NCBI RefSeq assembly: GCF_019464535.1
Contig: NZ_CP080507.1
Location: 1,080,001-1,112,000 of the forward strand
Reading direction: 5' to 3'
Source of the DNA: Horticoccus luteus
GTDB taxonomy: Bacteria; Verrucomicrobiota; Verrucomicrobiia; Opitutales; Opitutaceae
DNA length: 32,000 nt
In this document: in pieces, positions 6,543-25,917 of the stretch
Layout of the letters: every line of letters starts with the position of its first letter
Position numbering within the stretch: position 1 is the stretch's first letter
Program-made: the position numbers and the translations under genes
The notes under the pieces: generated by a model
Databases searched by the model: none
Seen by the model: the letters and a program-made list of their open reading frames with translations, nothing else
Told to the model about the DNA's origin: nothing

Positions 6543-8060
6543 TCAAGGCGCACGCGCGAGCTGGATCTCGGCGCCGAAGCCGTGAGGCGTGCGGTTGAAG
6601 AAGCGGACGTTGCCGCCGCACGCCGCGATGGAGGAACGCACGATCGCGAGGCCGAGGCCGGAGCCGCCCGTGTCTGCCGAGCGTGCTTCGTCGGGCCGGA
6701 AGAACGGTTCGCCGAGGCGGGCGAGCGCTTCGGGCGGCACGCCAGGTCCGTCGTCCTCAACGATGAGCTTGATGTGTCCATCGTCCGGCGCGGCGGAGAG
6801 AAAGACGTGACTGCCGGGGGCATAGCGCGCGGCATTGCGGAGGAGGTTGGCGACGGCGCGTTCGAGCAGCCGGGCATCCGCGAGCACGCGCAGGCTCGGC
6901 GCCACCTCGACGCGGCAGACGATAGCGGGTGCTTCGCGCATGTGAACGCGTTGCAGCAGCGGAGCGAGTTCCACCGGTGCGAGGCTGGCGGCGCGGGGCC
7001 GGAGCCCGGCCTGGGTGAACGCCATCAATTCGTTCACGAGCTGGCTCATGTGCTGCACCTCGTCGCGCACGTCGCCGAGGGGGGCGGTGGCGGCGGCGCC
7101 AGTGCGTTGCTCAAGAATTTCGACGGCGACCTGCAGGCGGCCGAGAGGTGAGCCGAGCTCGTGGGCGACGTCGCCGAGAAAACGTTTCTGGCCTTGTGCC
7201 TGAGTTTCGAGGCGGGCGGCCATGCGGTTAACGGACTCGCCGAGGTGACCAAGTTCGTCGCGGCGGCGGGTCGGAACGCGCGTGGTGAAATCGCCAGAGG
7301 CGATGCGTTCGGTGGCGGCGCCGAGCTGGCGCAGGGCGCGGCTGATGCCGCGGACGAGCGGGAGCCAAAACAAAATGGAAACCACCAGGACGCCGGCAGC
7401 GGTGAGGAACCACGGCGTGAGGTCGAGGAGGCCGAGGAGCGCGCGGAGCGAAGAGGAATGCACGACGAGACTCACGGGTTCGGGGCGGCCGTTGTGGTCG
7501 ACGGGCGGCATGCGCACGATGAGCCACCAGGCGGCGGGTTCGCCGACGTGAAACAAATGCCGGCCGCGCGCGAGATTCCGGGCGTTGGCGCCGGGACGAT
7601 CGGAGCGGAGGTCGGGCGGCGGAGCGGCGTCGTCGCGAGGAGGCGCATCGTCGTGGAACTCGTCGCGGTCGTGGCGGGGTGGCGGGCGCGAGCCAGGCGG
7701 TGGTGGCGGGAGACCGAGAGGCGGTGGAGGGCGGAGTAGTGCGATGACTTCGCGCGGGAGTTCGGGGGCGTGACCGGCCCGCGTTTCGCCGCTCTCGTTG
7801 GCGACAACCGCATAATCGAGTTGGTCGCTGAGCGGGAGGTGCGCGACGGCAGCGGTGGCGTCGTCGGTCGCGCGAAGTTCGGCGGCGAGGAGGTTGGCGG
7901 CGGCCTGGGCGCGTTCACCGGCGGGTCCGCGCACGAGAGCGTCGAGGCCCGAGGCGTCGGACGTGACGAACAGCACGCAAGCGGCGAGCGCGGCGACGAG
8001 GAGGAGGTTGAGCACGAGCCAGAGCGAAACCTTGAGCGAGAGGGGGAAGCGGACGTGCAT
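6543..8060 (-). CDS. Sensor histidine kinase, CpxA/EnvZ-like (TM - periplasmic domain - TM - HAMP - HisKA - HATPase)
   Basis: HAMP-like segment RALRQLGAATERIASGDFTTRVP...LGESVNRMAARLE. H-box FLGDVAHELGSPLGRL. N-box LLRNAARYA. G-boxes DDGPGVPPE and GGSGLGLAIV. I prefer the ATG at 8060 (MHVRFPLSLKVSLWLVL...) over the TTG at 8090. Confidence 0.85.
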   Translation of the reverse strand: MHVRFPLSLKVSLWLVLNLLLVAALAACVLFVTSDASGLDALVRGPAGERAQAAANLLAAELRATDDATAAVAHLPLSDQLDYAVVANESGETRAGHAPELPREVIALLRPPPPLGLPPPPPGSRPPPRHDRDEFHDDAPPRDDAAPPPDLRSDRPGANARNLARGRHLFHVGEPAAWWLIVRMPPVDHNGRPEPVSLVVHSSSLRALLGLLDLTPWFLTAAGVLVVSILFWLPLVRGISRALRQLGAATERIASGDFTTRVPTRRRDELGHLGESVNRMAARLETQAQGQKRFLGDVAHELGSPLGRLQVAVEILEQRTGAAATAPLGDVRDEVQHMSQLVNELMAFTQAGLRPRAASLAPVELAPLLQRVHMREAPAIVCRVEVAPSLRVLADARLLERAVANLLRNAARYAPGSHVFLSAAPDDGHIKLIVEDDGPGVPPEALARLGEPFFRPDEARSADTGGSGLGLAIVRSSIAACGGNVRFFNRTPHGFGAEIQLARAP

Positions 8061-8123
8061 GCGGAAGCGGGAGTGAGGCGAGCGTAGCAAGCGGCGGAGG
8101 AAAATCCCGCGGATTTACGCGGC

Positions 8124-8161: not shown

Positions 8162-8200
8162 TTGGGCGGAGTGAAATGGAGGCAACTTCTCCTCCCCATC

Positions 8201-10780
8201 ATGAAACTTCGTTTTTCGCTTGGTGTTTTTTGTGCCGGGTTCGCGGTCGTGCGGTCGGCGGATGCCGCCGTCAGCGATCCGCTGGTGACGAGTTGGTTGA
8301 CGGCGCCGACGGGCTGGTATGCGCGTCTGTATCAAAGTGACGCGGCGAAGGCGGCGGGCACGGCGGTGACGACGTGGAGCCGCGGTCAGACGAATCAAAC
8401 GGCGCCTGTTTACGCGGGTGTGATGCAGGTTTCGTATTCGACGGGCTGGGTCTATCTGCGCACGAGTGGGCTAGGTTACCACGTGATGGGGCCGTGGTAT
8501 CTCGACGCGGGGCACCTGCAGAATTTTCCGAACTTTCCTGGCAACACGGCGACGATTTATCGGTTTCCGCGGGTGCCGGCGGCGGCGGTCACCCACACGC
8601 TCACCAACGGCGGGGCGATCGGTTACTTCGTCGATGGCGTGGCGATGTTCGACAACCGCGACACGTTTTCCTACACGCATGCCTCGAGTCAGGACGCCAC
8701 GCCCGTGAATGGCCTGCACGGTGACGGCGTGTGGAATCGCGATGCGTTCGTGAACGAAGCGGTGACGTTCGATCCGGCGTATGCGCATCAGGCGGGATCG
8801 CAATATCACTACCACGCCAACACGCCGGCGCTGCGGCACGAGTTGGGCGATCATGTGGATTTCAATGCGAACACGCGGACGTATCAGGAAAGCAGTGCGG
8901 CCGTGACCGCGCACTCGCCGATCGTGGGTTGGGCGGCGGATGGCTATCCAGTCTATGGGCCGTATGGCTATGCGTCGGCGATGGACGCGGGCAGCGGCGT
9001 GCGGCGAATGATCTCAGGCTATGTGAAACGCGACGGCACGCGCGGCACGATCAACCTCGCGAGCACCGGGCGCACGACGTTGCCGGCGTGGGCGGCGCGC
9101 GCGCAAAGTCGCAGTGCATCGCTCGCGCCGACGGTGCAGGGACCGGCGGTGAACGGCACTTACACGCTCGGACATTACCTCGAAGACTACGAATATCTGG
9201 GCGATGTGGGTGGCACGCTGGGAACGAATTTCGATCTCGACGAATACAACGGCCGGGAGTGCGTGACGCCCGAATTTCCGCAGGGCACCTACGCGTATTT
9301 CTTGAGCATCGAGGACGACGGCACGCCGAAGTTTCCTTACATTCTGGGGCGCTGGTTCCGCGGCACACCGGCGGGAGGGCCGGTGACAGCGTTGAGCGAG
9401 ACGGTGACGGAATACGTGCGCGGCGCGCCGGCCGCGGCGATCGGAGTGATGGCCGGCGCGGCGGTGGGAGGCGGGGTGACGTTGAGTTGGAATTCGGCGG
9501 AAGGCGCGACGTATAAAGTCGAATCGTCGGCGGATCAGGCGGCGTGGACGACGCTGGCGGCGGCGGTCACGAGCGGGGGCGCGACGACGAGTTACGGGGC
9601 GCCGGTGGCGGGATATTATCGGGTGACGTTGGTGGCGATCGCCACGTATGACACGAACGGCCCGGTCGGCACGCCGGTGGGCACGGCGGGGATCGTGGCG
9701 TATGCGCCAACGGTAGCGCCGACGATCACCACGGCGCCGGTAAGCGCGACAGTGGCGGCAGGCGGAGAGGCGATGCTGGCCGTGGAAGCGAACGGGTCAG
9801 GGCCGCTCGCCTACCAATGGCGAAAGGACGGCGTGGATGTCGCGGCTGCGACAGAGGCGACGCTGACGATTCCGTTCGCGCAGACGAAAGACAGCGGAAG
9901 TTACGTGGTCGCGGTGAGCAACGCCGGTGGGGCGGCGACGAGTGCGGCGGCGGCGTTGACGGTGACGCCGACACCGACCGCAGCGACGGCGCGATTGATG
10001 AATCTCTCGACGCGCGCGCAGACGGGCGGCGCGACGGGCATGCCGATTGTGGGTTTCGTGCTGAGTGGGCCGGGAACGCGGACGATGCTCGTGCGCGCGG
10101 CGGGTCCGGCGCTGGCCAACTCGGGCGTGAGCGCACCGCTGGCGGATCCGAGTTTGTCGCTGGTCAGGGAGGGAACGCTGCTGGCGGCGAACGAGGATTG
10201 GAGCGCGAGCGACGCCGCGACGTTTACGGCGGCGGGCGCCTTCCTGTTTACGGCGGGCAGCAAGGATGCGGCGCTGGTGAGCGCGCTCGCGGGCGGGGTT
10301 TACTCGGCACCGGTGGGCACAGGCGGCGGCATGGGCGTGGCACTGGTGGAAGTTTACGATGCGGGCGGCAATGCGGTCGGACCGGCACTCACCAACCTCT
10401 CGAGTCGAACATTTGTCGGCGTGGGCGAACAGGTGGCGATCGCGGGTTTTGTGATCGGCGGCAGCGGGCCGATGCGACTGCTGTTGCGCGCGGCCGGTCC
10501 CGCGCTGGCGGCGTATGGCGTCGGCGATGCGCTCGTCGATCCGCGCGTGACGCTTTACGCGGGCAGCGCGGTGGTGGCGACGAATGACGACTGGAGCGAC
10601 AACGTGGATGCGGCGACGGTTGCGACGACGGCGACGGAGACGGGCGCGTTTGCGTTGGCGAGCGGAAGCAAGGATGCGGCGATGATCGTGAGTCTGCCGC
10701 CCGGCGTTTATTCGATGGTCGTGGCGGGCGCAGGCGCGAATACCGGCACGGCGCTGGCGGAAATTTACGTGGTGCCGTGA
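8201..10780 (+). CDS. Large secreted YHYH-domain protein with Fn3-like and Ig-like (I-set type) domains and two tandem C-terminal modules
   Basis: Signal peptide MKLRFSLGVFCAGFAVVRSADA. The YHYH motif (GSQYHYHAN, nt 8804-8815), HSPIVGWAADGYPVYGPYG and LDEYNGRE...FPYILGRWFRG fit the YHYH domain family. An Ig-like segment lies around 9719-9970 (LAYQWRKDG...DSGSYVVAVSNAGG). The ATG at 8201 is chosen for its signal peptide over the GTG at 8162. Confidence 0.75.
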   Translation: MKLRFSLGVFCAGFAVVRSADAAVSDPLVTSWLTAPTGWYARLYQSDAAKAAGTAVTTWSRGQTNQTAPVYAGVMQVSYSTGWVYLRTSGLGYHVMGPWYLDAGHLQNFPNFPGNTATIYRFPRVPAAAVTHTLTNGGAIGYFVDGVAMFDNRDTFSYTHASSQDATPVNGLHGDGVWNRDAFVNEAVTFDPAYAHQAGSQYHYHANTPALRHELGDHVDFNANTRTYQESSAAVTAHSPIVGWAADGYPVYGPYGYASAMDAGSGVRRMISGYVKRDGTRGTINLASTGRTTLPAWAARAQSRSASLAPTVQGPAVNGTYTLGHYLEDYEYLGDVGGTLGTNFDLDEYNGRECVTPEFPQGTYAYFLSIEDDGTPKFPYILGRWFRGTPAGGPVTALSETVTEYVRGAPAAAIGVMAGAAVGGGVTLSWNSAEGATYKVESSADQAAWTTLAAAVTSGGATTSYGAPVAGYYRVTLVAIATYDTNGPVGTPVGTAGIVAYAPTVAPTITTAPVSATVAAGGEAMLAVEANGSGPLAYQWRKDGVDVAAATEATLTIPFAQTKDSGSYVVAVSNAGGAATSAAAALTVTPTPTAATARLMNLSTRAQTGGATGMPIVGFVLSGPGTRTMLVRAAGPALANSGVSAPLADPSLSLVREGTLLAANEDWSASDAATFTAAGAFLFTAGSKDAALVSALAGGVYSAPVGTGGGMGVALVEVYDAGGNAVGPALTNLSSRTFVGVGEQVAIAGFVIGGSGPMRLLLRAAGPALAAYGVGDALVDPRVTLYAGSAVVATNDDWSDNVDAATVATTATETGAFALASGSKDAAMIVSLPPGVYSMVVAGAGANTGTALAEIYVVP
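9989..10384 (+). repeat. C-terminal module copy 1 of the YHYH protein (about 130 aa)
   Basis: Shares with copy 2: NLS(T/S)R, GFV(L/I)xGxG, L(V/L)RAAGPALA, L(A/V)DP, NxDWS, GSKDAA, GVYS and AL(V/A)E(V/I)Y. Confidence 0.7.
10385..10777 (+). repeat. C-terminal module copy 2 of the YHYH protein (about 130 aa)
   Basis: See copy 1. The two translated segments align by eye along their full length. Confidence 0.7.
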
Positions 10781-10802: not shown

Positions 10803-11540
10803 TTACTCGGGGTCGTCGGGCGCGCGCATCATGTAGCCGGCAGAGCGGAGCGTGCGGATGAAGCGCGGGTTCTTGGCATCGTCGCCGAGCTTTTTGCGAA
10901 GCGAAGAAATGTGCACGTCGATGGAGCGGTCGAAAACGTCGTAGTTGCGGTCGCGGCATTCGTCGAGGAGGGCTTCGCGGGTTTTGACGCGGCCCCGGGC
11001 GCGCGCGAGGCTCGCGAGCAGGTCGAACTCCACGGGCGTGAGCACCAAGGGCGCGGCGTCGAGCACGGCGCGACGGGCGTCGAGGTTGACGCGCAGAGGG
11101 CCGACGGTGAATTCTGCGCGCGGTGCGTCGGCGGCGGCGATGGTGCGTTGGCTGCGACGGAGGACGGCGCGGAGGCGGGCGAGGAGTTCGCGCGTGGAAA
11201 ATGTTTTAGGCACGTAGTCGTCGGCGCCGACTTCGAGTCCGACGATGCGGTCCATCTCATCGCCGCGCGCGGTGAGCATCAGCACGGGAACGTCGACGCG
11301 CGCGCGGATGCGTTTCAGGACTTCAAAGCCGTCGAGGCCGGGGAGCATGACGTCGAGGATGACGGCGTGCCAGGACTCGGTGGTCGACGTGGCGCGGTCG
11401 ACGCCGTCGGGACCGGTGTGCGCGGCGGAGACATCGAAGCCGAGTGGCGCGAGATAGGCGGTGACGAGCCGGCAGAACTTGCGGTCGTCGTCGATCATGA
11501 GCACGCGGGTGCGGCCGGGATCGGGGGCGGCGTCGGTCAT
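10803..11540 (-). CDS. OmpR/PhoB-family response regulator, CpxR-like
   Basis: Receiver domain RVLMIDDD...ILDVMLPGLDGFEVLKRIR...MLTARGDEMDRIVGLEVGADDYVPKTFSTRELLARLRAVLRR. Winged-helix C-terminus LTPVEFDLL...DVHISSLRKKLG...IRTLRSAGYM. ATG at 11540. Confidence 0.9.
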   Translation of the reverse strand: MTDAAPDPGRTRVLMIDDDRKFCRLVTAYLAPLGFDVSAAHTGPDGVDRATSTTESWHAVILDVMLPGLDGFEVLKRIRARVDVPVLMLTARGDEMDRIVGLEVGADDYVPKTFSTRELLARLRAVLRRSQRTIAAADAPRAEFTVGPLRVNLDARRAVLDAAPLVLTPVEFDLLASLARARGRVKTREALLDECRDRNYDVFDRSIDVHISSLRKKLGDDAKNPRFIRTLRSAGYMMRAPDDPE

Positions 11541-11655: not shown

Positions 11656-13458
11656 ATGCGCTGGTTCGCGTTACTTGTGTTGCCGGTGGGGTCGTCGCAG
11701 GCGGCGGAGCTGACGATGCGGGTGGCGTTGCGGTGGGGCGGCGAATCGCTGGCCGTGCCGTCGACGGAGGTGCGCACGGACGCGGGGATGAAGTTGCGGG
11801 TGACGCGGCTGGCGGCGTTGCTGTCGGGCGCGGTGTTGACGAAGAGCGACGGGACGGTGGTGCGGCTCGACGGGCAATTTGGTTTTATCGACGCGGAGTC
11901 GGGGCGGCTGGCATGGACGTTGCGCGGCGTGCCGGCGGGCGACTATGCGGGACTCGGTTTTCAAGTCGGCGTGCCGACGGCGGTGAACCATGCCGATCCC
12001 GGACAGTGGCCGGCGGGGCACGCGCTGAATCCGCTGGTGGACCGGCTGCACTGGAGCTGGCAGGGCGGCTATGTGTTTTTCGCGCTGGAAGGACGCTGGC
12101 GTGACGGGGCGACGCCGGACACGGCGACGGAGCGCGGGTTTTCGTATCACGTGGCGACGGAGGCGCGTTTGATGAGGGTGAATTTCGTGGCGGCGTTTCG
12201 CGTGGAGGGTGCGACGACGGTCACATTGGCGCTGAATGTGGCGCGGGTTTTGGCGGTGCCGCAATGGGCGGCGGCAGGCAACGAGAGCACGCATTCGGCG
12301 GTCGGCGATGAGCTCGCGCCGAAGCTGGCGAACGCGTTCAGCCGCGGGTGGTTTTGGCTGGGCGCGGAGGAGGCGTCGCGTGCGGCGAACTCGGCGCGCG
12401 TCGATGAAGCAGCAGAAGCGCCGACGGCGGTGGCGGGCGATGCGAAGAGAGGAAAAGCCGCGGGCGCGAAGCCGCGGGCATTTGTGGTGCCGGCGGGGTT
12501 TCCGCAGCCGGATTTGCCGCAGGACAATCCGTTGACGGAAGAAGGGATCGCGTTGGGAAAAGTGTTGTTCAACGACCGGCGGCTGTCGGCGGGCGGGCAA
12601 CAGTCGTGCGCGAGCTGCCATGCGCCGGAGCGTGGGTTCAGCGACGACGTGGCGCGGAGCCGCGGCGCGAACGGCGGAGTGGGCGAGCGGAATGCGATGC
12701 CGTTGCTGAATCTGGCGTGGAGTCCGGCGTTTGCGTGGGACGGCGCGCAGCCGCGGATCCGCGATCAGGCGCGGGCGGCGATGTTGAATCCGCGGGAAAT
12801 GGCGGCGGACGAGCACGTGGTGCTGGCGACGCTCAATGGTGATGCGGTGTTGCGGGCGCGTTTCGCGGTGGCTTTCGGGCCGGGTGAAATCACGGCGGAC
12901 CGGCTCGGCCGGGCGTTGGAGCAATACTTGCTGACGCTGGTGGCGGCGGACTCAAAATTCGACCGGGCGATGCGGGGAGAGGAAACGTTGACCGCCGAGG
13001 AGCAGCGGGGATTTGAGTTGTTCGCGACGGAATACGATCCGGCGCGCGGGCGCAGGGGCGGCGATTGCTTTCACTGCCACGGCGGCGCGTTGTTCACCGA
13101 TTACGCGTATCGGAGCAACGGATTGGAGCGCGTCTCGGGCGATGCGGGGCGCGCGCGGGTGACGGGGCGCGAGGAAGATCGCGGGAAGTTCAAGACGCCG
13201 TCGCTGCGCAACGTGGCGTTGACGGCGCCGTATATGCACGACGGGCGGCTGAGGACGCTTGAGGACGTCGTCGCGCACTACGATCACGGCGTGCAGCGGG
13301 GGGCGTCGCTCGATCCCAATCTGGCGAAGCATCCGCTGGCGGGGATGCAACTGCCGTCAGCGGATCAGGCGGCGCTGGTGGCGTTTTTGCGGACGTTGAC
13401 CGAGAGCGCTTCGGTGGGCGCGGGCGGAGAACGGCGCGCGAGAGCGGCGGCGCGTTGA
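11656..13458 (+). CDS. Fusion protein: N-terminal MbnP-like domain + C-terminal MbnH/MauG-type di-heme cytochrome c peroxidase
   Basis: Short signal peptide. In the N-domain, VPAGDYAGLGFQVGVPTAVNHADP and NPLVDRLHWSWQGGYVFFALEG match the MbnP-family pattern as I recall it. An Ala/Lys-rich linker follows. In the C-domain the two heme motifs are CASCH (nt 12607-12621) and CFHCH (nt 13066-13080), with the CCP signatures GKVLFND, RNAMPLLN, WDG, FKTPSLRNV and APYMHDG. Confidence 0.7.
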   Translation: MRWFALLVLPVGSSQAAELTMRVALRWGGESLAVPSTEVRTDAGMKLRVTRLAALLSGAVLTKSDGTVVRLDGQFGFIDAESGRLAWTLRGVPAGDYAGLGFQVGVPTAVNHADPGQWPAGHALNPLVDRLHWSWQGGYVFFALEGRWRDGATPDTATERGFSYHVATEARLMRVNFVAAFRVEGATTVTLALNVARVLAVPQWAAAGNESTHSAVGDELAPKLANAFSRGWFWLGAEEASRAANSARVDEAAEAPTAVAGDAKRGKAAGAKPRAFVVPAGFPQPDLPQDNPLTEEGIALGKVLFNDRRLSAGGQQSCASCHAPERGFSDDVARSRGANGGVGERNAMPLLNLAWSPAFAWDGAQPRIRDQARAAMLNPREMAADEHVVLATLNGDAVLRARFAVAFGPGEITADRLGRALEQYLLTLVAADSKFDRAMRGEETLTAEEQRGFELFATEYDPARGRRGGDCFHCHGGALFTDYAYRSNGLERVSGDAGRARVTGREEDRGKFKTPSLRNVALTAPYMHDGRLRTLEDVVAHYDHGVQRGASLDPNLAKHPLAGMQLPSADQAALVAFLRTLTESASVGAGGERRARAAAR

Positions 13459-13516: not shown

Positions 13517-14317
13517 TCAGGCTTCGTTGACGACCGGATTGGTGAGCGTGCCGATCTTCCCGATCTCGATGCTGACGGAGTCGCCGGCTTTGAGCCAGAG
13601 CGGGGGCTTGGCCGCCATGCCGACGCCTTGGGGCGTGCCGGTGAGAATGACGGTGCCGGGGACGAGCGTGGTGCTGCCGCTCAGGTAGGCGATGAGCGCG
13701 GGGACGTCGAAAATCATGTCACTGGTGGTCCAATCCTGCACGCGCTGGCCGTTGAGAATCGTGGCGATCTTGAGCGTATTCGGATTGGTGATTTCGTCGG
13801 TCGTGACGAGGCACGGTCCAAGCGGGGCGAACGTGTCGAAGAACTTGCCGCGGCACCATTGGCCGCCGCCGAGCCGGATCTGGTGATCGCGGGCGGAGAC
13901 GTCGTTGGCGCAGGTGTAGCCGAGGACGTAGTCGAGGGCGTTTTCGCGGGAGACGTTTTTGCAAGGTTTGCCGATGACGACGGCGAGTTCGCATTCGTAG
14001 TCGACCTCGTGGCTGGCGAGGCGGGTGGGGATTTCGATCGGGTCGCCGGGGTTCTGCGTGGCGTTGATGCCTTTGACGAAGAGGATGGGGCGCTCGGGGA
14101 TTTTCGCGCCGGTTTCGGCGGCGTGCTGCCGGTAGTTGAGCCCGATGCAGAGGATCTGCGTGGGGGCGATCGGCGCGAGGAGCTTGCCGGGGCGCACAGG
14201 GCGATCGGTGACTTGGTAGGAGCCGAAGATGTCGCCGGAAATTTCGCGGGCGGAGCCATCGGGCTGGAGAGCGGCGTAGGCGGGGCCTTGGGGCGAGAGG
14301 TGACGAATGATTTTCAT
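13517..14317 (-). CDS. Fumarylacetoacetate hydrolase (FAH) family protein
   Basis: ILCIGLNYRQHAAE...PILFVKG...VDYECELAVVIGK...GYTCANDVSARD...GKFFDTF.P.GP and the C-terminal GDSVSIEIGKIGTLTN are typical FAH-fold motifs. It lies 30 nt downstream of the AraC gene on the same strand. Confidence 0.8.
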   Translation of the reverse strand: MKIIRHLSPQGPAYAALQPDGSAREISGDIFGSYQVTDRPVRPGKLLAPIAPTQILCIGLNYRQHAAETGAKIPERPILFVKGINATQNPGDPIEIPTRLASHEVDYECELAVVIGKPCKNVSRENALDYVLGYTCANDVSARDHQIRLGGGQWCRGKFFDTFAPLGPCLVTTDEITNPNTLKIATILNGQRVQDWTTSDMIFDVPALIAYLSGSTTLVPGTVILTGTPQGVGMAAKPPLWLKAGDSVSIEIGKIGTLTNPVVNEA

Positions 14318-14347
14318 GAGAGGGAAACTCAGCTAGCCGTGGGCGCG

Positions 14348-15193
14348 TCAGCGGGGCAAGGCCGCGTCGGGTCTTTTTTCGAGCCACGCGCGGGGCGGGT
14401 GGCCGAAGCGGGCGCGGAAGAGCCGATAGAAATGGGAGAGATCGCCGTAGCCGCTGGAAAAGGCGGCGCCGACGACGGAGTGACGTTGCGCGCGCAGCAG
14501 TTGCGCGGCGTGGGTGAGGCGGCGTTCGGTGAGTTCGGCGAGGAAGCTGCGGTCGGTAACCTCGCGAAACAGTTTGCTGAACTGGCGGCGGGAGAGGTCG
14601 GCTTGGGCACAGGCGCGTTCGAGGCTCCACGGTTCGTAGAAGGTGGCGGCGAGTTCGCGGGCGACGGTCTCGACGCGGCGGCGGGCGGCGTCGGAGGAAA
14701 GGCCGGCGGGCCGGCGGGCGAGGGCGACGAGCGCGTTTTCCGCGGCGGCGCGGATGACGATTTCACGGCCGAGGCGCACGCCGGCCTGCTCGACGACTGC
14801 GGCGCGCCAATATGTTTCGAATTGTTGGGCCCAGGTCCGGCCAGGGCGCAACGCGGCAGGACGTGCGGGAGTGAGTTTTTCCCAGAGCGAATCGAGGCCG
14901 GGGACACTGCGGACAAAATCGCGCGAGAAACACAAGAGCAGCAGCGTCGCGGGCTCGCTGTCGGTGATCTTGTGGCCCACGCCGGCTGCCACGCAGACGA
15001 CGGTGCCGGCGGGAGCGTGGACGGGCGTGGCGTCGCCTTTGATCGAACAGGCGATGCGGCCGTGGAGGACGTAGATGATCTTGTGAAACGGGTCGATGCG
15101 CTCCGCCATGTGGAAGCGCGGCCCGTGCACGCTTTCGACGAACGCGACGCCGTGAGGAGGGAGTTCGACGGGGATGGGGCGGGAGACGCTCAT
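14348..15193 (-). CDS. AraC-family transcriptional regulator (cupin sensor + double HTH)
   Basis: Cupin-like N-terminus HKIIYVLHGR...AGTVVCVAAGVGHK. C-terminal AraC HTH LSRRQFSKLFREVTDRSF...AAFSSGYGDLSHFYRLFRARFG. I prefer the ATG at 15193 over the TTG at 15208. Confidence 0.85.
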   Translation of the reverse strand: MSVSRPIPVELPPHGVAFVESVHGPRFHMAERIDPFHKIIYVLHGRIACSIKGDATPVHAPAGTVVCVAAGVGHKITDSEPATLLLLCFSRDFVRSVPGLDSLWEKLTPARPAALRPGRTWAQQFETYWRAAVVEQAGVRLGREIVIRAAAENALVALARRPAGLSSDAARRRVETVARELAATFYEPWSLERACAQADLSRRQFSKLFREVTDRSFLAELTERRLTHAAQLLRAQRHSVVGAAFSSGYGDLSHFYRLFRARFGHPPRAWLEKRPDAALPR

Positions 15194-15442
15194 GCAGGTG
15201 AAACTCAACTAAAATGCCCAATCTGCGAAGGTGGCCAAGCCCGATGTGCCAAGACGCACGAGGATTTGAATGGTAGGATGCTTCGCCTCATCGCCCAACC
15301 CCCCTTTTTCGCATGGCCGATTCTTTTCCTTCACCTGTCACTGGCACGGCGCCCGGTTTCGCGCGCGCCGTCGTGGCGTGGAGGTGGACCAGCCGCGCGA
15401 GGCGGATGAGCGCAGCGGTCGGAACATGGCGAGGTTGAACGA

Positions 15443-17023
15443 ATGAACCGACTGGCGGAACGACTCGGCGCTTCCAGCGACTTCCTGATCGGAGTCGAGT
15501 TGGTGTCCACGCGCGGAGGCCTTGATCAGCCGCACGCGGCGAAGACGTTGTCCCTGGCGCGCGACCTTGCTGGGGCGGCGAGCATCGACTGGGTGTCGAT
15601 CACAGACAACGCGGGCGGCAATCCGATGCTGGCTGCGTCCGCGTTGGGCGCACCATTGCGCGATGCCGGGCGGGAGGTGGTGATCCATTTGTCGTGCAAG
15701 GATTTTAATCGCAACGCGCTGGAGAGCGAGGCGTGGCGGCTGGCGAGCGAGGGGTTTCAGAACATTCTGGTGCTGACGGGAGATTATCCGGGGCACGGGG
15801 TGGGTGGGGGCGGCAAACCGGCGTTCGACATCGACGCGATCGGTTTGCTCACGCTGCTCGGCCAGATGAATGCCGGGCTGGACGTGACGCGCGAGGGGGC
15901 GAAGAAGGCGGTGCGACTCGAGCCGACGAAGTTTTTTCCGGGCGCGGTGGTGACGAATTTCAAGCTGCTCGAGAACGAAGTGATTCCGCAGTTGTTGAAG
16001 ATGGAGCGGAAGCTCGCGGCGGGCGCGCGTTTCCTGATCAACCAGATCGGTTACGATTCGCGCAAGGTGCACGAGTTGATTGCGTGGATGCGGCGGCGCG
16101 GTCACGGGCACGTGCCGTTGATTGGAAATGTTTATGTGCTCAACCCGGGCGTGGCGCGGGTCTTTCGCGCCAAGAAAATTCCGGGCGTGGTGATCTCGGA
16201 GGAGCTCGGCGATATCTGCGAGGCGCAGCGGGCGGCAGCGGACAAGGGCAAGGCGTTTTTCCTCGAACTGGCCGCGAAGCAAATCGCGATTTACCGCGGG
16301 CTCGGTTATCGCGGCGCGTATCTGGGCGGGGTGCATTCCGTGGCGGAGATCGAGCGCGTGCTGGAAATCGAGCGCGGGTTTGCGCCGGACGATTGGAAGC
16401 AGTTTGCGCGGGAGATCCAGTATTCGCGCCCGGGCGAATTTTTCGTGTTTGCGCGCGATGAGAACACGGGTCTCGCCAATCCGGAAAAGCTGGAAGCGAC
16501 GTATGCCGCTTCGCTGGGCGCGCATCCGCGGACCCAGAATGTCACGTTCACGTATCGATTTTCCAAGTTTGCGCACGAATTGATGTTCACGCCGGGCAAG
16601 GGCCTGTGGAAGGCGGGCGATGCGCTGTGCGCGAGCGCGAAGGATCCGCTGCAAGGGCCGGCATGGATGAGGGCGATCGAGCACACGAGCAAACGCCTGA
16701 TGTTTGACTGCCGCGATTGCGGTGACTGTTCCCTCTCGGAGATGGCGTTTCTGTGTCCAGAATCGTCGTGTGCGAAAAACCAACGCAACGGTCCGTGCGG
16801 GGGCACCCGGGATGGAAAGTGCGAGGTTTACGACTACGAGTGCATTTGGTCGCGCGCTTACGAGCGCCTGAAATTCGAGGGTCGCGAAGACCAGTTGCTC
16901 GCGCACACTCCCGCGGTGCAGGATCAGAGTCTGCGTTATACGTCGAGCTGGGCCAACACCTGGGCCCGCCGCGACCATCTCGCCAAACACCCTCCGGCCA
17001 GCCTCCCACCGATCAAATCCTGA
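15443..17023 (+). CDS. Methylenetetrahydrofolate reductase domain fused to an MTHFR_C (MetV-like, Cys-rich) domain
   Basis: The N-terminal roughly 300 aa carry MetF-like motifs: GVELVSTRG, VSITDNAGG, HLSCKD and ILVLTGDYP. The C-terminal segment is Cys-rich: FDCRDCGDCSLSEMAFLCPESSCAKNQRNGPCGGTRDGKCEV. That segment matches the MTHFR C-terminal/MetV-type domain as I recall it. Confidence 0.75.
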   Translation: MNRLAERLGASSDFLIGVELVSTRGGLDQPHAAKTLSLARDLAGAASIDWVSITDNAGGNPMLAASALGAPLRDAGREVVIHLSCKDFNRNALESEAWRLASEGFQNILVLTGDYPGHGVGGGGKPAFDIDAIGLLTLLGQMNAGLDVTREGAKKAVRLEPTKFFPGAVVTNFKLLENEVIPQLLKMERKLAAGARFLINQIGYDSRKVHELIAWMRRRGHGHVPLIGNVYVLNPGVARVFRAKKIPGVVISEELGDICEAQRAAADKGKAFFLELAAKQIAIYRGLGYRGAYLGGVHSVAEIERVLEIERGFAPDDWKQFAREIQYSRPGEFFVFARDENTGLANPEKLEATYAASLGAHPRTQNVTFTYRFSKFAHELMFTPGKGLWKAGDALCASAKDPLQGPAWMRAIEHTSKRLMFDCRDCGDCSLSEMAFLCPESSCAKNQRNGPCGGTRDGKCEVYDYECIWSRAYERLKFEGREDQLLAHTPAVQDQSLRYTSSWANTWARRDHLAKHPPASLPPIKS

Positions 17024-17060
17024 AGACGGCACTCGAATTCGTTCTCCGCATTTTTAATCT

Positions 17061-18410
17061 ATGAATATGTCAAAGCCCACCAACCTCGAAACGAAACTCC
17101 AGCAGTATGCCAGCCCCGTCGATATGTTGCGACATTCGACGGTCGGCGGCATCCAGTTCCCCATCAAGTCAGAGTATTCGAACTGGCGCGACGAGCAGGA
17201 GGCGTGGCAGCACAGCGTGATCCTTTTCGACCAGTCCTTTCACATGAAGGACGTCTACGTCGAGGGTCCCGACGTCAAACGGCTGATTTCCGATGTGGCG
17301 GTGAACTCGATGGCGAATTTCGGCGCCAACAAGGCCAAGCAGATTGTGGCCTGCAATTACGACGGGCGCGTGATCGGCGATGCCATTCTTTTCGGCCTGT
17401 CAGATGAAAAATACAGCGTGGTGGGCCGGCCGTCGGTGCCGAATTGGGTCGAGTTCAACGCGCGCACAGGCAACTACGACGTCAAAGTCACAGTGGATGA
17501 ATGGGCGATCTATAACAAGGGCCAGCGCCTGCTCTATCGTTATCAGATTCAGGGTCCGAATGCCTTGGAACTGATCAAGAGCGTGCACGAGGGTCCGTTT
17601 CCCGACATCAAGTTCTTCCATCTGGGCGAACTGAAGATCGCGGGGCACAAAGTGCGCGCGCTGGGGCACAACATGTCACGCATGGGTGGCCTGGAACTGC
17701 ACGGTCCGCTGGCGGAAGGGAAAGCGGTGCTCGACGCGATCCTGGCGGCGGGACCGAAGTTCGGCTTGGTGCAAGGCGGCAGCCGGTCTTACGCGACGGT
17801 CTCGCCGGAGAGCGGCTGGATTCCGTCGCCGATGCCCGCGATTTACGCCGGCGAGAAGATGAAGCCGTATCGCGAATGGCTGCCGGCGGAGGGTTTTGAG
17901 GCCACGGCGTCGCTCGGCGGCAGTTTTTCGTCCCCGAATATTGAAGACTACTATCAAACGCCGTGGGATCTCGGCTACGGGCGGCACGTCAAATTTGACC
18001 ACGACTTCATCGGCCGCGCGGCGCTGGAAAAAATCGCGGATCAGCCGCATCGCCGCAAAGTCTGGCTGCGCTGGAACAACGACGATGTGTTGAAGGTTTA
18101 CGCCAGCCAGCTCCGGCCGGGCGACCGTTACAAATACATGGAAATGCCGAACGCCTACTATTCCCTGCTGCCGTTCGACAAGGTGATGGTGAACGGCCGG
18201 ATGGTCGGTCTTTCGACTTACACGATCTACACGGCGAACGTGCGCGGGTGGTTCTCTCTGGCGATGGTGGACGACAATCTGGCTGATGGGGCCGAGGTGT
18301 CGGTCGTCTGGGGCGAAGAAAACGGCGGTTCGCCGCGGCCGATCGTCGAACGCCATGTGCAAACCGAAATCCGGGCGACCGTTTCCGACAACCGGCTCAA
18401 TCTGCCGTGA
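17061..18410 (+). CDS. GcvT-fold, tetrahydrofolate-dependent demethylase, LigM/DesA-like (aryl O-demethylase type)
   Basis: 449 aa, much longer than a true GcvT. Motifs resembling Sphingobium LigM from memory: PTNLE, DMLRHS, EYSNWRDEQEAWQHSVILFDQSFHM, NKAKQ, YQIQGPNA, ESGWIPSPMPAIYAGEKMKPYREWLPA, GGSFSSPNIEDYY, VKFDHDFIGRAALE and VWGEENGG. An alternative start is the ATG at 17067. Confidence 0.7.
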   Translation: MNMSKPTNLETKLQQYASPVDMLRHSTVGGIQFPIKSEYSNWRDEQEAWQHSVILFDQSFHMKDVYVEGPDVKRLISDVAVNSMANFGANKAKQIVACNYDGRVIGDAILFGLSDEKYSVVGRPSVPNWVEFNARTGNYDVKVTVDEWAIYNKGQRLLYRYQIQGPNALELIKSVHEGPFPDIKFFHLGELKIAGHKVRALGHNMSRMGGLELHGPLAEGKAVLDAILAAGPKFGLVQGGSRSYATVSPESGWIPSPMPAIYAGEKMKPYREWLPAEGFEATASLGGSFSSPNIEDYYQTPWDLGYGRHVKFDHDFIGRAALEKIADQPHRRKVWLRWNNDDVLKVYASQLRPGDRYKYMEMPNAYYSLLPFDKVMVNGRMVGLSTYTIYTANVRGWFSLAMVDDNLADGAEVSVVWGEENGGSPRPIVERHVQTEIRATVSDNRLNLP

Positions 18411-19282
18411 GCGCGTCCGCCCAAGCCCGGCTGCGGCTCATCGCGTCGTGTCCTGACCGGACTGGAATCGTCGCCCGCGTGGCGACGTTTCTGGCCGAGC
18501 GCGGGGCGTCGATCACGGAGGCAGCGCAATATAACGATCCGCGCAGCGAGATGTTTTTCATGCGCTCGGAATTTGTGATTGGCGGCGATGCGGAGGTGCT
18601 GGCGCGGCTCGAAAAGGAGTTTCAACCCATCGGAACGGAAATGAAGATGGCGTGGCGGATGGTGGATGCGCAGCGGCGGCAGCGCGTCGTGCTGCTCGTG
18701 AGCAAGTTTGACCACTGTCTCGCCTACCTGCTGCACCGGCGAAAAGTGGGGGATCTGGAGTTCGACGTGCCGTGCGTGATTTCGAATCACGAGGACCTGC
18801 GGTCGCTGGTCGAGTGGTATGGCATTCCTTATCATTACGTGCCCGTGCCGAAAGAATCGGCGGGCAAACAGGCGGCGTTGGAGAAGACGGCGCAGCTCAT
18901 TTCGGAGGCCGAGCCCGACACCATCGTGCTCGCGCGTTACATGCAGATCTTTCCGCCGTGGTTGTGCGAACGCTACCGCCATCGCGTGATCAACATTCAT
19001 CACAGTTTCCTGCCGTCCTTCGTCGGCGGGAAGCCGTATCACCAGGCCGAGGAACGCGGCGTGAAGCTCATCGGGGCGACGTGTCACTACGTCACCGAAG
19101 AACTCGACGCCGGTCCGATCATCGAGCAGGACGTGGTGCGCATCCGGCACAGCGACACGATCAAGGACATGATGCGCTTGGGGAAAGACGTGGAGAACGC
19201 GGTGTTGTCCCGCGGGCTACGTTATCACCTCGAGGACCGGGTGCTCGTGCACGGGAACAAGACGATTTTGTTTTCGGGCTGA
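18407..19282 (+). CDS. purU: Formyltetrahydrofolate deformylase
   Basis: ACT-like N-terminus (CPDRTGIVARVATFLAERGASI). Formyltransferase core with VINIHHSFLPSFVGGKPYHQAEERGVKLIGATCHYV. The GTG start overlaps the upstream stop (GTGA, 18407-18410). Confidence 0.85.
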   Translation: MSASAQARLRLIASCPDRTGIVARVATFLAERGASITEAAQYNDPRSEMFFMRSEFVIGGDAEVLARLEKEFQPIGTEMKMAWRMVDAQRRQRVVLLVSKFDHCLAYLLHRRKVGDLEFDVPCVISNHEDLRSLVEWYGIPYHYVPVPKESAGKQAALEKTAQLISEAEPDTIVLARYMQIFPPWLCERYRHRVINIHHSFLPSFVGGKPYHQAEERGVKLIGATCHYVTEELDAGPIIEQDVVRIRHSDTIKDMMRLGKDVENAVLSRGLRYHLEDRVLVHGNKTILFSG

Positions 19283-19303
19283 GTGATCCGACTGACTACG
19301 CGG

Positions 19304-19332
19304 GCGCGACGGTGGTTTTACGACCGTCGCGC
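19304..19332. terminator. 10-bp GC hairpin between the convergent purU and gcvP genes
   Basis: GCGCGACGGT (19304-19313) pairs with ACCGTCGCGC (19323-19332) across a 9-nt loop. A T5 run lies about 12 nt downstream. A second small hairpin, GGCGGA-GCGCG-TCCGCC, lies at 19364-19380. Confidence 0.35.
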
Positions 19333-19428
19333 CGCGCAGAGGATTTTTCGACGGAGTAATTCAGGCGGAGCGCGTCCGCCCAAGAGGCGTGTGTTGACGG
19401 AACCGCGGCGTGCGGCGGATGCTCAGCG

Positions 19429-22326
<2,898 letters not shown>

Positions 22327-23361: not shown

Positions 23362-24561
<1,200 letters not shown>

Positions 24562-24594
24562 GTTCGCGCTTACGAATCCACACCTCTAGTTGAA

Positions 24595-24667
24595 CCACAG
24601 AGGCACGGCGGCGGAGAGAGGCAATGTGATCTCTGCGCCCCGCGGTGTCCTGTGGTTCTTTTTTTTC
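24595..24667 (+). terminator. Long imperfect hairpin followed by a T-run between gap and pgk (intrinsic terminator or attenuator candidate)
   Basis: The outer stem pairs CCACAG (24595-24600) with CTGTGG (24650-24655). The inner stem pairs GGCGGAGAGA with TCTCTGCGCC, with one mismatch. The hairpin is followed directly by TTCTTTTTTTT (24656-24666) and ends just before the pgk ATG at 24673. Confidence 0.5.
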
Positions 24668-24672
24668 CCACC

Positions 24673-25917
24673 ATGCCGAAGTTTCAAACCATCCGTGATC
24701 TCAACCTGAACGGAAAGCGCGTGCTCATTCGCGTCGATTTCAACGTGCCGCAGGACAAGGCGAGCGGCGCGATCACCAACAATCAGCGCATCGTCGCCGC
24801 GCTGCCCACGATCAACTACGCGTTGGAGCAAGGCGCGTCGGTGGTGTTGATGAGTCATCTCGGCCGGCCGGATGGGAAGGCGAATGCGAAGTATTCCCTG
24901 AAGCCGGTGGCGGCAGAGCTGGAAAAGCTGCTGGGGCGGCCCGTGGCGTTTGCGGCGGATTGCGTCGGCGCGGAGGCGGAGCAAGCGGCGGCGGCGCTCA
25001 AGCCGGGCGGGGTGCTGCTGCTGGAGAACCTGCGTTTCCACCTCGAGGAGGAGGGCAAAGTGAAGCAGGAGGATGGTTCCTCGGTGAAAGCGGATCCGGC
25101 GAAGGTGGCGGCGTTTCGCGCGAGTCTTTCGAAATTGGGCGACGTGTATGTGAACGACGCTTTCGGCACTGCGCATCGCGCGCACAGCTCGATGGTGGGC
25201 GTAAATTTGCCGCAGAAAGCAGCGGGATTTTTGATGGAGGCGGAGCTCAAAGCGTTTGCGTCGGTGCTGGATCATCCGCAGCGCCCGTTGCTCGCGATAC
25301 TCGGCGGCGCCAAGATCGCGGACAAGATTCCCCTCATCAACAATCTGCTCGAGAAAGCCGACGAGATCATCATCGGCGGCGGCATGGCGTTTACGTTCAA
25401 GAAGGAACTCGAGGGCATGGCCATCGGCGACAGCCTTTACGATCCGGAAGGGGCCAGAATCGCGAAAGACCTTTTTGCGAAGGCCGCCGCCAAGGGGGTG
25501 AAGATTCACCTGCCGGTGGACTTCGTGGTGGCGGACAAATTCGATCCGGAGGCGACGACACAAATTGTGGACGATCAGGCGGGCATTCCTGCGGGGTGGA
25601 TGGGCCTCGATGCGGGCCCGAAGTCGCGCGAGCGGTTCGCGGAAGTGATCGGGCGGTGCAAGACGATCATCTGGAACGGGCCTCCGGGCGTGTTTGAGTT
25701 TGCGAAGTTCGCCGAGGGCACGAAGGCAATGGCGGCGGCGATTGCGGGAGCCACGGCAGCGGGCGCGACGACGGTGGTCGGCGGGGGCGACACCGCCACG
25801 GCGGCCAAGAAAACCAAGGTCGCCGACAAGGTCACGCATTGCTCCACGGGTGGCGGCGCCAGTCTCGAATTCCTCGAGGGCAAAGCCTTGCCAGGGGTGG
25901 CGTTCCTCGAAAGCTGA
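24673..25917 (+). CDS. pgk: Phosphoglycerate kinase
   Basis: Motifs are [30 protein letters not shown] and VVGGGDTA. The ATG at 24673 ([10 protein letters not shown]) is preferred over the GTG at 24652. Confidence 0.95.

Follow-up and report, generated by a model that had tools for sequence, protein, structure and literature searches.

A 32,000-nucleotide stretch of the Horticoccus luteus genome (the window) carries a gene set that we propose to be a substrate-inducible operon, which would take methyl groups from methyl ethers onto THF and then oxidise them, a reading to which we give a probability of roughly two in three. The LigM/DesA-family enzyme would move an O-methyl group onto THF from a methoxylated compound that carries a carboxylate and is most likely aromatic, yielding 5-methyl-THF and the corresponding phenol; our best guess for the substrate is a vanillate-, syringate- or 3-O-methylgallate-like compound. 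A fused MTHFR/MetV-like Fe-S flavoprotein, working in the oxidative direction, would convert 5-methyl-THF to 5,10-methylene-THF and pass the electrons via two predicted [4Fe-4S] clusters to an acceptor other than NAD(P)+. FolD, encoded elsewhere, would lead on to 10-formyl-THF, which PurU would then hydrolyse, giving formate and setting the cofactor THF free for another round. The divergent AraC-type protein would be the dedicated regulator.

Gene layout and regulation

An ORF check and profile models upheld the five reading frames of the initial annotation in position and family, together with the 30-nt spacing between the FAH gene and araC (Table 1). The verrucomicrobial origin proposed there is also borne out, the window being Opitutaceae-like by synteny and by orthologues with 72-91% identity in Opitutaceae/Opitutales MAGs.

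Table 1. Features of the locus, with positions in the window and supporting evidence
Feature	Position	Strand	Support
FAH-family gene (266 aa)	13517-14317	-	FAA_hydrolase, 245 bits (244.8), plus Rv2993c-like_N
AraC/XylS-type regulator (286 aa)	14348-15208	-	HTH_18/AraC, 72 bits
araC/operon divergent intergenic region (234 nt)	15209-15442	.	Presumed promoter/operator, by position only
Fused MTHFR + MetV-like Cys-rich domain (DUF5981; 526 aa)	15443-17023	+	Pfam MTHFR 44.3 bits, DUF5981 90.7 bits
Putative LigM/DesA-family THF-dependent O-demethylase, PVC-specific clade (449 aa)	17061-18410	+	GCV_T 107 bits, DesA/LigM models 564/523
purU, formyl-THF deformylase (ACT + formyl transferase domains)	18407-19282	+	PurU models 398.1 bits
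Candidate terminator hairpin, GC-rich, between convergent purU and gcvP	19300-19337	+	RNA fold, sequence
gcvP, glycine dehydrogenase	19429-22326	-	146 nt from purU

In the sequence itself there are 37 nt between the MTHFR stop codon and the ATG of the demethylase gene; the end of that gene (TGA) and the start of purU (GTG) share 4 nt, and a U-run lies a few bases 3' of the hairpin that follows purU. The RNA fold of 19283-19428 reaches -69.6 kcal/mol (z = -2.7), and none of 200 shuffles was equally stable. Matches to promoter or terminator consensus sequences did not exceed chance, and the intergenic region held no sigma-70-like consensus. From this arrangement we infer that the plus-strand genes (15443-19282) form one co-transcribed operon.

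The initial annotation had given the AraC protein a cupin ligand domain. Its AraC type (HTH_18) and divergent orientation stand, but the cupin part appeared only below threshold, with Cupin_2, AraC_binding and Cupin_6 matches at the N-terminus (all sub-threshold, E 5e-4 to 2e-3). Across Opitutales the operon faces a homologous AraC gene in divergent orientation, as it does in a Methylacidiphilales MAG, where a full-length homologue (30% identity, E 2e-29) occupies the same position. Beside the demethylase gene, tblastn matches to AraC occur at 24 verrucomicrobial loci besides the window, and also at one proteobacterial locus (L030) and two corrinoid-cluster loci (L087 and L088). The protein is probably a dedicated substrate sensor and regulator of the operon.

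The FAH gene probably shares a transcript with araC. It had been counted as part of the catabolic unit, a view that finds no support beyond adjacency, and its membership in the demethylation pathway is uncertain. The protein falls under every NCBIfam equivalog cut-off, in the PDB it comes closest to mycobacterial FAH proteins that are uncharacterised and to HpaG, and the FAH-araC adjacency is kept only in the Opitutaceae core group, the closest family-level relatives. The relatives that keep it also keep the housekeeping neighbours gcvP and nth.

A putative O-demethylase outside the LigM and DesA clades

The LigM structures 5tl4/5x1i match residues 2-442 of the demethylase, that is, its full length, at 437 bits. 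NCBIfam models score it at 563.9 bits for DesA (cut-off 800) and 523.4 bits for LigM (cut-off 580), compared with 65.7 bits for GcvT and 45.8 bits for DmdA. The initial annotation had named clustering with GcvT or DmdA as the result that would speak against a LigM-like enzyme; the protein groups with LigM/DesA. In a neighbour-joining tree the verrucomicrobial demethylases form one clade (bootstrap 100), joined by those of Lentisphaeria (91), and the two together stand apart from the DesA and LigM clades. As judged from scores and tree, the protein is a member of the LigM/DesA family of THF-dependent O-demethylases. It is not an equivalog of LigM or of DesA and belongs to a third, PVC-specific clade. 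The earlier description as LigM-like thus holds for family membership and the full-length match but not for LigM equivalog status, and because the protein lies below both equivalog cut-offs and in a separate clade, substrate specificity is not transferable.

Twelve LigM positions are kept (Q57, H60, M61, Q93, F110, V120, R122, F188, F189, E215, Y247 and W256; residue numbering verified against the demethylase/LigM structure alignment). All twelve are invariant in 28 of 28 verrucomicrobial sequences, and ten are invariant in 86 of 86 aligned sequences. We take the twelve to be catalytic or THF/substrate-binding, with H60, R122 and Y247 as substrate/catalytic residues and Tyr247 as a catalytic one; these roles reportedly go back to work by Kohler and by Harada in 2017. 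Two further tyrosines are changed, LigM Tyr31 to Phe across the whole PVC clade and Tyr29 to Ile in the window protein alone.

These data bear on an alternative that we consider unlikely, namely that the same chemistry serves a non-lignin substrate, for instance a sugar or uronic acid with an O-methyl group (4-O-methylglucuronate) or another methyl ether bearing a carboxylate, as met by polysaccharide-degrading Opitutaceae, the C1 unit being oxidised by the same route. The separate clade with its scores under both equivalog cut-offs and the two altered pocket tyrosines are in keeping with it, as are the lack of aromatic ring-cleavage genes in the window and related loci and the best NCBIfam match of the FAH neighbour, which at 213 bits (cut-off 500) is the 2,4-didehydro-3-deoxy-L-rhamnonate hydrolase of a sugar-acid pathway. 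However, the remaining presumed substrate/catalytic positions H60, R122 and Y247 are invariant, the demethylase shares 47-51% identity with enzymes whose substrates are all methoxybenzoates, and no carbohydrate-active enzyme or sugar transporter was consistently linked in the loci examined. We know of no member of the LigM/DesA family that acts on non-aromatic ethers.

The fused reductase and PurU

The reductase combines an MTHFR domain (residues ~38-271) with a Cys-rich MetV-like DUF5981 domain (residues 411-491; Pfam). Its AlphaFold2 model (pLDDT 82, pTM 0.84) finds its best Foldseek matches among MTHFR barrels (1v93, E 2e-12, target TM 0.81). The original MTHFR-like call is therefore right about the barrel (44 bits, fold) but incomplete as a single-domain view, since a MetV-like Cys-rich domain is fused to it. 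Nor is it the SYK-6-type enzyme: the protein has no detectable sequence similarity to the type-4 S6MTHFR of SYK-6 and is a MetF-MetV-like Fe-S fusion. Eight cysteines (C423, 426, 429, 438, 443, 452, 460 and 467) are invariant in 32 reductase orthologues, as are E19, D114 and Q183.

The same combination of MTHFR barrel and MetV-type DUF5981 domain is found in acetogen MetF/MetV (type 3), a class that has no link to NAD(P)H and, given a dye, can oxidise methyl-THF; for Thermoanaerobacter kivui MetFV, two [4Fe-4S] clusters were measured, NAD(P)H is not used and methyl-THF is oxidised with a viologen dye (PMC8578170). Because the eight invariant cysteines match these two clusters, we predict that the window reductase is an acetogen-style Fe-S flavoprotein with two [4Fe-4S] clusters. 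Unlike the acetogen enzyme, it joins both parts in one polypeptide, and in Opitutaceae, a lineage that is not acetogenic, its gene is found with a THF- or corrinoid-dependent demethylase and not in a Wood-Ljungdahl setting. Orthologues with 66-67% identity sit within corrinoid-dependent methyltransferase clusters of other Opitutaceae, next to genes for an MtaA/CmuA-like URO-D protein, a B12-binding protein, a pterin-binding methyltransferase and a RACo activator, a second kind of locus expected to yield methyl-THF. We propose that the fused reductase acts as a 5-methyl-THF dehydrogenase; alternatively, it may serve the cell as its general MTHFR and work reductively.

PurU is well supported by the NCBIfam models PRK06027 (398.1 bits, cut-off 223) and TIGR00655 (343.8 bits, cut-off 286). 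Its gene lies 3' of the demethylase in the window and 16 verrucomicrobial loci, and likewise at L085 and L086. Ten closely related loci are without purU and have an MtaA/CmuA-family methyltransferase gene in its place, so PurU is not obligatory to the module; its translational coupling to the demethylase in the window argues that C1 oxidation and THF recycling are integral to it.

The module might also be mainly assimilatory, with the demethylase feeding 5-methyl-THF to methionine/SAM synthesis and the reductase and PurU clearing the excess. Such use has been proposed for SYK-6, where methionine is argued to draw its methyl-THF from demethylation alone (PMC11868366), and the replacement of purU in the ten related loci and the MetE-like and homocysteine S-methyltransferase genes of the related cluster L088 point the same way. 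Against this stand the coupling of purU to the demethylase and the failure to find a methionine synthase gene in the window. We regard an assimilatory emphasis as quite unlikely, and it is compatible with the oxidative operon proposed here.

Linkage across Verrucomicrobiota and comparison with known systems

In all 26 assessable verrucomicrobial loci the demethylase adjoins some MTHFR, in three non-equivalent forms: MTHFR-DUF5981 (17 loci and the window), a permuted DUF5981-MTHFR (6 loci) and a stand-alone type-4-like MTHFR (3 loci). MTHFR precedes MetV in Opitutaceae, and the order is reversed in other Opitutales. Most of the verrucomicrobial demethylase loci also hold purU and a homologous divergent AraC gene. 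The absence of folD and a ring-cleavage gene from the window, already recorded in the initial annotation, extends to every verrucomicrobial locus examined, and neither formate dehydrogenase nor an aromatic transporter was found in any of them or in the window.

A housekeeping C1 cluster without demethylation, in which the GcvT-fold protein would be the aminomethyltransferase partner of GcvP, MTHFR would supply methionine synthesis with methyl-THF and PurU would keep the formyl-THF pools in balance, is highly improbable: gcvP does adjoin purU in many Opitutaceae loci, many bacteria have MTHFR and PurU in housekeeping roles too, and some public annotations label orthologues 'glycine cleavage system aminomethyltransferase T', but GcvT models reach 65.7 and 35.5 bits (cut-offs 300 and 236) against 523-564 for LigM/DesA, Tyr247 is kept, gcvP is convergent on the opposite strand, distant Opitutales keep the AraC-MTHFR-demethylase-PurU unit with no gcvP nearby, and the dedicated AraC regulator is conserved.

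The ligM-metF-ligH/desA system of SYK-6 (Sphingobium lignivorans) resembles the proposed demethylation operon in that its demethylase is of the same family (47% identity, catalytic positions kept) and adjoins an MTHFR gene, with C1 disposal at the formyl-THF level. It differs in having LigM and DesA proper, a type-4 MTHFR instead of an Fe-S fusion and ligH as third gene instead of purU, whereas the window has an AraC-type regulator and no ring-cleavage genes near the operon. For the SYK-6 MTHFR that is paired with LigM, methyl-THF oxidation has been shown by experiment (PMC11868366).

The same demethylase, MTHFR and PurU triad as in the window is clustered on plasmids of Novosphingobium pentaromativorans (pLA3), Sphingobium sp. 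RAC03 (pBSY17_1) and Agrobacterium (pAt). There, the demethylases exceed the equivalog cut-offs (DesA 835-850 bits, LigM 854 bits), the MTHFR is of type 4 and matches S6MTHFR 7xg9 at 290 bits, and the neighbours include folD, though not in every such cluster, and genes for protocatechuate 4,5-dioxygenase or of the hpa set, all missing from the window. This occurrence of the triad around DesA/LigM equivalogs in Proteobacteria and the MTHFR neighbour in 26 of 26 verrucomicrobial loci corroborate the demethylase-MTHFR-PurU logic first read from the window. The chloromethane (cmu) module has the gene content cmuAB-metF2-folD-purU. Both it and the dicamba (dmt) module make methyl-THF and then use MTHFR in reverse followed by PurU (PMC11868366), but with other methyltransferases or substrates and a type-4 MTHFR.

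The suggestion that such demethylation is undocumented in this lineage holds for experimental work, as we came across no publication on verrucomicrobial demethylation of the LigM type, but not for annotation, since public MAG entries already name LigM-type genes there. The pathway is known from lignin-degrading Proteobacteria, and the Opitutaceae version would combine a distinct demethylase lineage with an unusual Fe-S-type methylene-folate reductase.

A candidate operon for THF-dependent demethylation

All five genes were found where the initial annotation had placed them, and Pfam and NCBIfam upheld their families (Table). Taken as a whole, with its function and activities inferred from sequence, the module would carry out THF-dependent demethylation of a methyl ether followed by oxidation of the C1 unit, a reading to which we give a probability of roughly two in three. 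AraC would sense the substrate, the demethylase (the 449-aa GcvT-fold protein) would transfer the O-methyl group to THF, and the reductase, an Fe-S flavoprotein, would oxidise 5-methyl-THF to methylene-THF and pass the electrons to some acceptor; FolD, acting in trans, would lead on to 10-formyl-THF, from which PurU would release formate and THF.

Table. Features of the window and of related loci (L numbers) carrying homologues of the operon genes
Location	Coordinates	Strand	Feature	Basis or context
Window	6543-8090		HAMP histidine kinase	Neighbour of MbnP-peroxidase ORF
Window	8162-10780		YHYH-domain secreted protein	Neighbour of MbnP-peroxidase ORF
Window	10803-11540		OmpR-type response regulator	Neighbour of MbnP-peroxidase ORF
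Window	11656-13458	+	MbnP-peroxidase ORF, 600 aa
Window	13517-14317	-	FAH-family gene	Six-frame ORF list, Pfam/NCBIfam
Window	14348-15208	-	AraC gene	Six-frame ORF list, Pfam/NCBIfam; 30 nt upstream of FAH, same strand
Window	15443-17023	+	MTHFR-like gene (reductase), 526 aa	Six-frame ORF list, Pfam/NCBIfam
Window	17061-18410	+	GcvT-fold demethylase gene, 449 aa	Six-frame ORF list, Pfam/NCBIfam
Window	18407-19282	+	purU	Six-frame ORF list, Pfam/NCBIfam
Window	23515-26786	+	gap-pgk-tpiA run
Window and 17 loci			MTHFR-DUF5981 fusion
L005, L011, L016, L017, L022, L025			Permuted DUF5981-MTHFR fusion	Single ORF, other Opitutales
L008	10193-11020		Stand-alone type-4-like MTHFR	Beside demethylase and purU
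L009	3323-3895		Stand-alone type-4-like MTHFR	Beside demethylase and purU
L036	6161-6913		Stand-alone type-4-like MTHFR	Beside demethylase and purU
L001-L004, L006, L007, L010, L012, L013, L015, L020			URO-D variant	Opitutaceae MAGs
L085	3143-4150	-	Bicupin, 335 aa	araC-FAH-bicupin
L087	3342-11579		Corrinoid-dependent methyltransferase cluster	Other Opitutaceae
L088	3961-12942		Corrinoid-dependent methyltransferase cluster	Other Opitutaceae

Read from the sequence, the reductase stop lies 37 nt from the demethylase ATG, and there is a 4-nt overlap where the demethylase ends (TGA) and purU begins (GTG). PurU combines ACT and formyl-transferase domains and scores above both equivalog cut-offs (TIGR00655, 343.8 bits, cut-off 286; PRK06027, 398.1 bits, cut-off 223), in agreement with the earlier assignment. 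Just 3' of purU, in the 146 nt that separate it from the convergent gcvP, we spotted by eye a GC-rich hairpin, followed a few bases later by a U-run; the gap folds with -69.6 kcal/mol (z = -2.7). Consensus scans for promoters and terminators returned nothing above chance.

The remaining window genes have housekeeping, envelope or sensor functions unrelated to the module, and neither folD nor a ring-cleavage gene was found among them, as the sequence reading had stated. The gap-pgk-tpiA genes form an ordinary glycolytic run (GAPDH; PGK, 524 bits; TIM, 325 bits). Upstream of the module, one ORF joins MbnP (97 bits), a di-haem cytochrome c peroxidase/MauG-like domain (167 bits) and a cytochrome c domain; MbnP and its partner MbnH normally occur as two proteins, and the region may be a metal (copper?) handling locus. 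G+C is 0.58-0.62 at window positions 16001-19000, which cover reductase, demethylase and purU, against 0.67-0.69 in the 10-15 kb upstream, and GC skew also dips there. Because downstream housekeeping genes (23-26 kb) are likewise at about 0.61, the low G+C of the operon is no clear sign of recent transfer.

Demethylase orthologues at 72-91% identity come nearly all from Opitutaceae, Opitutales and other Verrucomicrobiota MAGs, followed by Lentisphaeria (63-65%) and by Proteobacteria, Actinobacteria and Acidobacteria (at most 61%). The gene order FAH-AraC / reductase-demethylase-(PurU) / GcvP / Nth is common to about 15 Opitutaceae loci, in which GcvP is 77-85% identical. Since the orthologues are mostly verrucomicrobial and the gene order is common to Opitutaceae loci, the genome was rightly read as verrucomicrobial, and the assignment can be taken to family level. 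Lake MAGs (e.g. from Lake Mendota) make up many of the related genomes, and we would expect lignin-derived methoxylated carbon to be plentiful in such waters.

The demethylase and its reductase partner

The demethylase matches the LigM structures 5tl4 and 5x1i over its full length (437 bits, residues 2-442), compared with 45.7 bits for the best GcvT structure (T. maritima). Against the NCBIfam models it scores 563.9 bits for DesA (cut-off 800), 523.4 bits for LigM (cut-off 580), 65.7 and 35.5 bits for two GcvT models (cut-offs 300 and 236) and 45.8 bits for DmdA (cut-off 410), in each case below the cut-off. As the LigM and DesA scores far exceed those for GcvT and DmdA, membership of the LigM/DesA family holds and a grouping with GcvT or DmdA does not. 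Judged by its sequence, the 449-aa protein is within the LigM/DesA superfamily, yet it is neither a LigM nor a DesA equivalog.

Reference labels were taken from a 10-protein scan with the same models, in which three Novosphingobium/Sphingobium plasmid genes and one Steroidobacterales gene (L081/L082/L083/L047) passed the DesA model with 814-850 bits and an Agrobacterium pAt gene (L084) passed the LigM model with 854 bits. In a distance-based neighbour-joining tree of 86 sequences (100 bootstraps, midpoint-rooted, without a GcvT, DmdA or Dmt outgroup), the 28 verrucomicrobial demethylases form one clade (bootstrap 100) joined to Lentisphaeria at 91. The DesA clade (bootstrap 94) and the LigM pair (bootstrap 100) both lie outside this PVC clade of Verrucomicrobia and Lentisphaeria; the proposed placement with LigM and DesA is thus supported by the family scores, but the protein falls inside neither clade.

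Twelve LigM positions (Q57, H60, M61, Q93, F110, V120, R122, F188, F189, E215, Y247 and W256; numbering checked against the alignment with the LigM structure sequences) are kept not only in the window protein but throughout the 28 verrucomicrobial sequences. Of the twelve, ten do not vary among the 86 sequences, the exceptions being Q57 (L in Lentisphaeria) and R122 (T in two others). We take these positions to be catalytic, substrate-binding or THF-binding, with Tyr247, His60 and Arg122 as catalytic residues, roles that were reportedly described by Kohler and by Harada in 2017. Of the two presumed pocket tyrosines of LigM, Y31 is replaced by Phe throughout the PVC clade. The Y29 position is Ile31 in the window protein alone (codon 17151-17153), whereas the other 27 verrucomicrobial sequences have Tyr there and the DesA clade has Asn; the Ile may be a strain-specific change of the substrate pocket or a neutral oddity.

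For the THF-dependent O-demethylation predicted for the window module, we consider the chances evenly balanced that a methoxybenzoate-type aromatic would be the substrate. The same chemistry acting on a non-aromatic methyl ether is an unlikely alternative for the module. A more specific and distinctly improbable version holds that the PVC-clade demethylases act on non-lignin methyl ethers such as polysaccharide-derived O-methylated sugar acids (4-O-methylglucuronate), while the single-chain Fe-S MTHFR feeds ferredoxin or the respiratory chain. With plant or algal polysaccharides as the envisaged source, polysaccharide-degrading Verrucomicrobia would then have a folate-dependent means, not recognised before, of living in part on methyl groups.

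The reductase has a weak but significant MTHFR domain (Pfam, 44.3 bits, cut-off 24, residues 38-271) and, at residues 411-491, a strong DUF5981 or 'MTHFR C-terminal' domain (90.7 bits), the Cys-rich module of MetV type. Eight Cys residues are invariant across 32 reductase orthologues, as are the counterparts of E. coli MetF Glu28, Asp120 and Gln183, a correspondence drawn partly from the alignment and partly by inference. An AlphaFold2 model (pLDDT 82, pTM 0.84) has an N-terminal barrel, and its best PDB structure matches are all MTHFRs (1v93, E 2e-12, target-normalised TM about 0.8; 0.74-0.82 over the matched MTHFR structures). Both domains of the type 3 MetF/MetV enzymes are therefore present, but fused in a single 526-aa ORF rather than forming the separate subunits of a heteromer, and the protein looks like a single-chain MetF-MetV. 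The MetFV of T. kivui contains two [4Fe-4S] clusters and does not use NAD(P)H; with benzyl viologen as acceptor it oxidises methyl-THF (PMC8578170). By analogy, the Cys-rich domain is predicted to be able to hold two [4Fe-4S] clusters.

THF-dependent O-demethylation has recently been tied to dedicated 'type 4' MTHFRs, which are defined as the methyl-THF-oxidising partners of the demethylases, whereas Fe-S 'type 3' MTHFRs are assumed to be reductive (PMC11868366). The reference for the LigM-linked reaction is S6MTHFR of Sphingobium SYK-6 (PDB 7XG9). 7XG9 is absent among the PDB sequence matches of the window reductase even at E<=1, and BLASTP against the Agrobacterium type-4 MTHFR adjoining LigM, which itself matches 7XG9 with 290 bits, gives E = 1.0; judged by sequence, it is not a type-4 enzyme. 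Of the SYK-6-like partner that had been proposed, the MTHFR fold is borne out by Pfam and the model, but similarity to type-4 S6MTHFR is not detectable in the sequence. No alignment could be made for the three S6MTHFR motifs (Leu48-Pro49, helix alpha8 and Pro268-Phe269).

Linkage of the operon genes across related loci

An MTHFR adjoins the demethylase in 26 of 26 assessable verrucomicrobial loci, in one of three forms (Table). Between the permuted fusion and the window reductase, identity is 44% over the Cys domain and 25% over the barrel. The stand-alone enzymes are 34-36% identical to the Agrobacterium type-4 MTHFR and occur in loci without the Fe-S fused reductase; as these loci belong to Opitutales, both MTHFR solutions coexist in one order. 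That non-equivalent MTHFR forms replace one another at a fixed position argues strongly for a functional requirement.

Downstream of the demethylase, purU is found in 16 surveyed loci besides the window and also in L085/L086. Ten close relatives without purU carry an MtaA/CmuA-family URO-D gene between araC and the reductase gene; URO-D and purU are mutually exclusive across loci, so the fate of the methyl group may differ between the variants. Several URO-D-variant loci also contain a 236-260-aa protein without Pfam match and a CHAD protein between demethylase and gcvP. None of the verrucomicrobial loci looked at has a linked folD or a linked gene for a formate dehydrogenase, a transporter or ring fission. 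FolD must come from a gene outside these loci, and degradation may stop at the aromatic product.

The two corrinoid-dependent methyltransferase clusters also contain orthologues of the fused reductase, at 66-67% identity, together with a divergent AraC, an MtaA/CmuA-like URO-D, a B12-binding protein, a pterin-binding methyl-THF:corrinoid methyltransferase, an amidohydrolase and a RACo activator. L088 additionally contains a Rieske/VanA_C oxygenase, a MetE-like gene and a homocysteine S-methyltransferase. The clusters resemble the O-demethylase systems of acetogens, here within a verrucomicrobial lineage, and make the fused reductase a recurrent partner of systems with methyl-THF as expected product. 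A mainly assimilatory role of the window module, supplying methyl-THF for methionine, is compatible with the demethylation reading, but we regard it as rather unlikely. That the genes form a housekeeping glycine-cleavage/C1 cluster is highly improbable: the adjacency of gcvP is lost in more distant Opitutales that retain the operon, and we therefore reject it as functional.

AraC has a C-terminal HTH_18 domain (72 bits) and an N-terminal domain with sub-threshold matches only (Cupin_2, 20.2 bits; AraC_binding, 18.4; Cupin_6, 18.3). A full-length homologue that includes the N-terminal domain is encoded divergently in a Methylacidiphilales MAG (30% identity, E 2e-29), and counterparts lie beside the demethylase in 24 further verrucomicrobial loci and one proteobacterial locus, as well as in the two corrinoid-cluster loci.

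The FAH protein clearly belongs to its superfamily as a generic Rv2993c-like member (244.8 bits). For a specific function (HpaG, fumaryl- or maleylpyruvate hydrolase etc.), every NCBIfam equivalog is far below its cut-off, and the best PDB matches are uncharacterised Rv2993c-like proteins. The gene is kept beside araC only in the Opitutaceae core and, since gcvP and nth are also kept there, this linkage may reflect phylogenetic inertia. In 11 related loci a bicupin gene follows 3' of FAH; it is absent from the window, where the next gene after FAH is the convergent MbnP-peroxidase gene. We considered whether the bicupin is a ring-cleavage dioxygenase of gentisate type, as this and FAH together would give a compact ring-fission route, and rejected the idea (gentisate 1,2-dioxygenase model, 20.6 bits, cut-off 442; generic cupin PDB matches only).

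Relation to known systems and significance

Sphingomonad LigM and DesA and the dicamba demethylase Dmt, all from Proteobacteria, are the experimentally characterised cases of THF-dependent O-demethylation. The window operon matches the pathway logic of ligM-metF-ligH in SYK-6, and the proteobacterial desA/ligM-metF-purU clusters are a closer match in logic than the SYK-6 operon; plasmid DesA and LigM genes of Proteobacteria adjoin type-4 MTHFR, purU and sometimes folD. In our literature searches, no publication connected Verrucomicrobia or Opitutaceae with LigM-type demethylation. The initial annotation's view that the chemistry is not documented in this lineage agrees with these searches, but automated MAG annotations already carry LigM/DesA names.

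The significance of the module rests on sequence and gene context. If it works as proposed, the chemistry would extend to Verrucomicrobiota and Lentisphaeria, the MTHFR partner would be interchangeable, and a fused acetogen-style Fe-S MetF/MetV would serve as the methyl-THF-oxidising enzyme outside acetogens. As a single polypeptide, the reductase would provide a tractable model for two questions that concern both MetFV and S6MTHFR, the direction of reaction and the electron acceptor. Given that ring-cleavage genes are not linked, these bacteria could possibly take only the methyl group. The operon is of interest mainly for its exchanged MTHFR partner and because it hints that Opitutaceae may harvest methyl groups.
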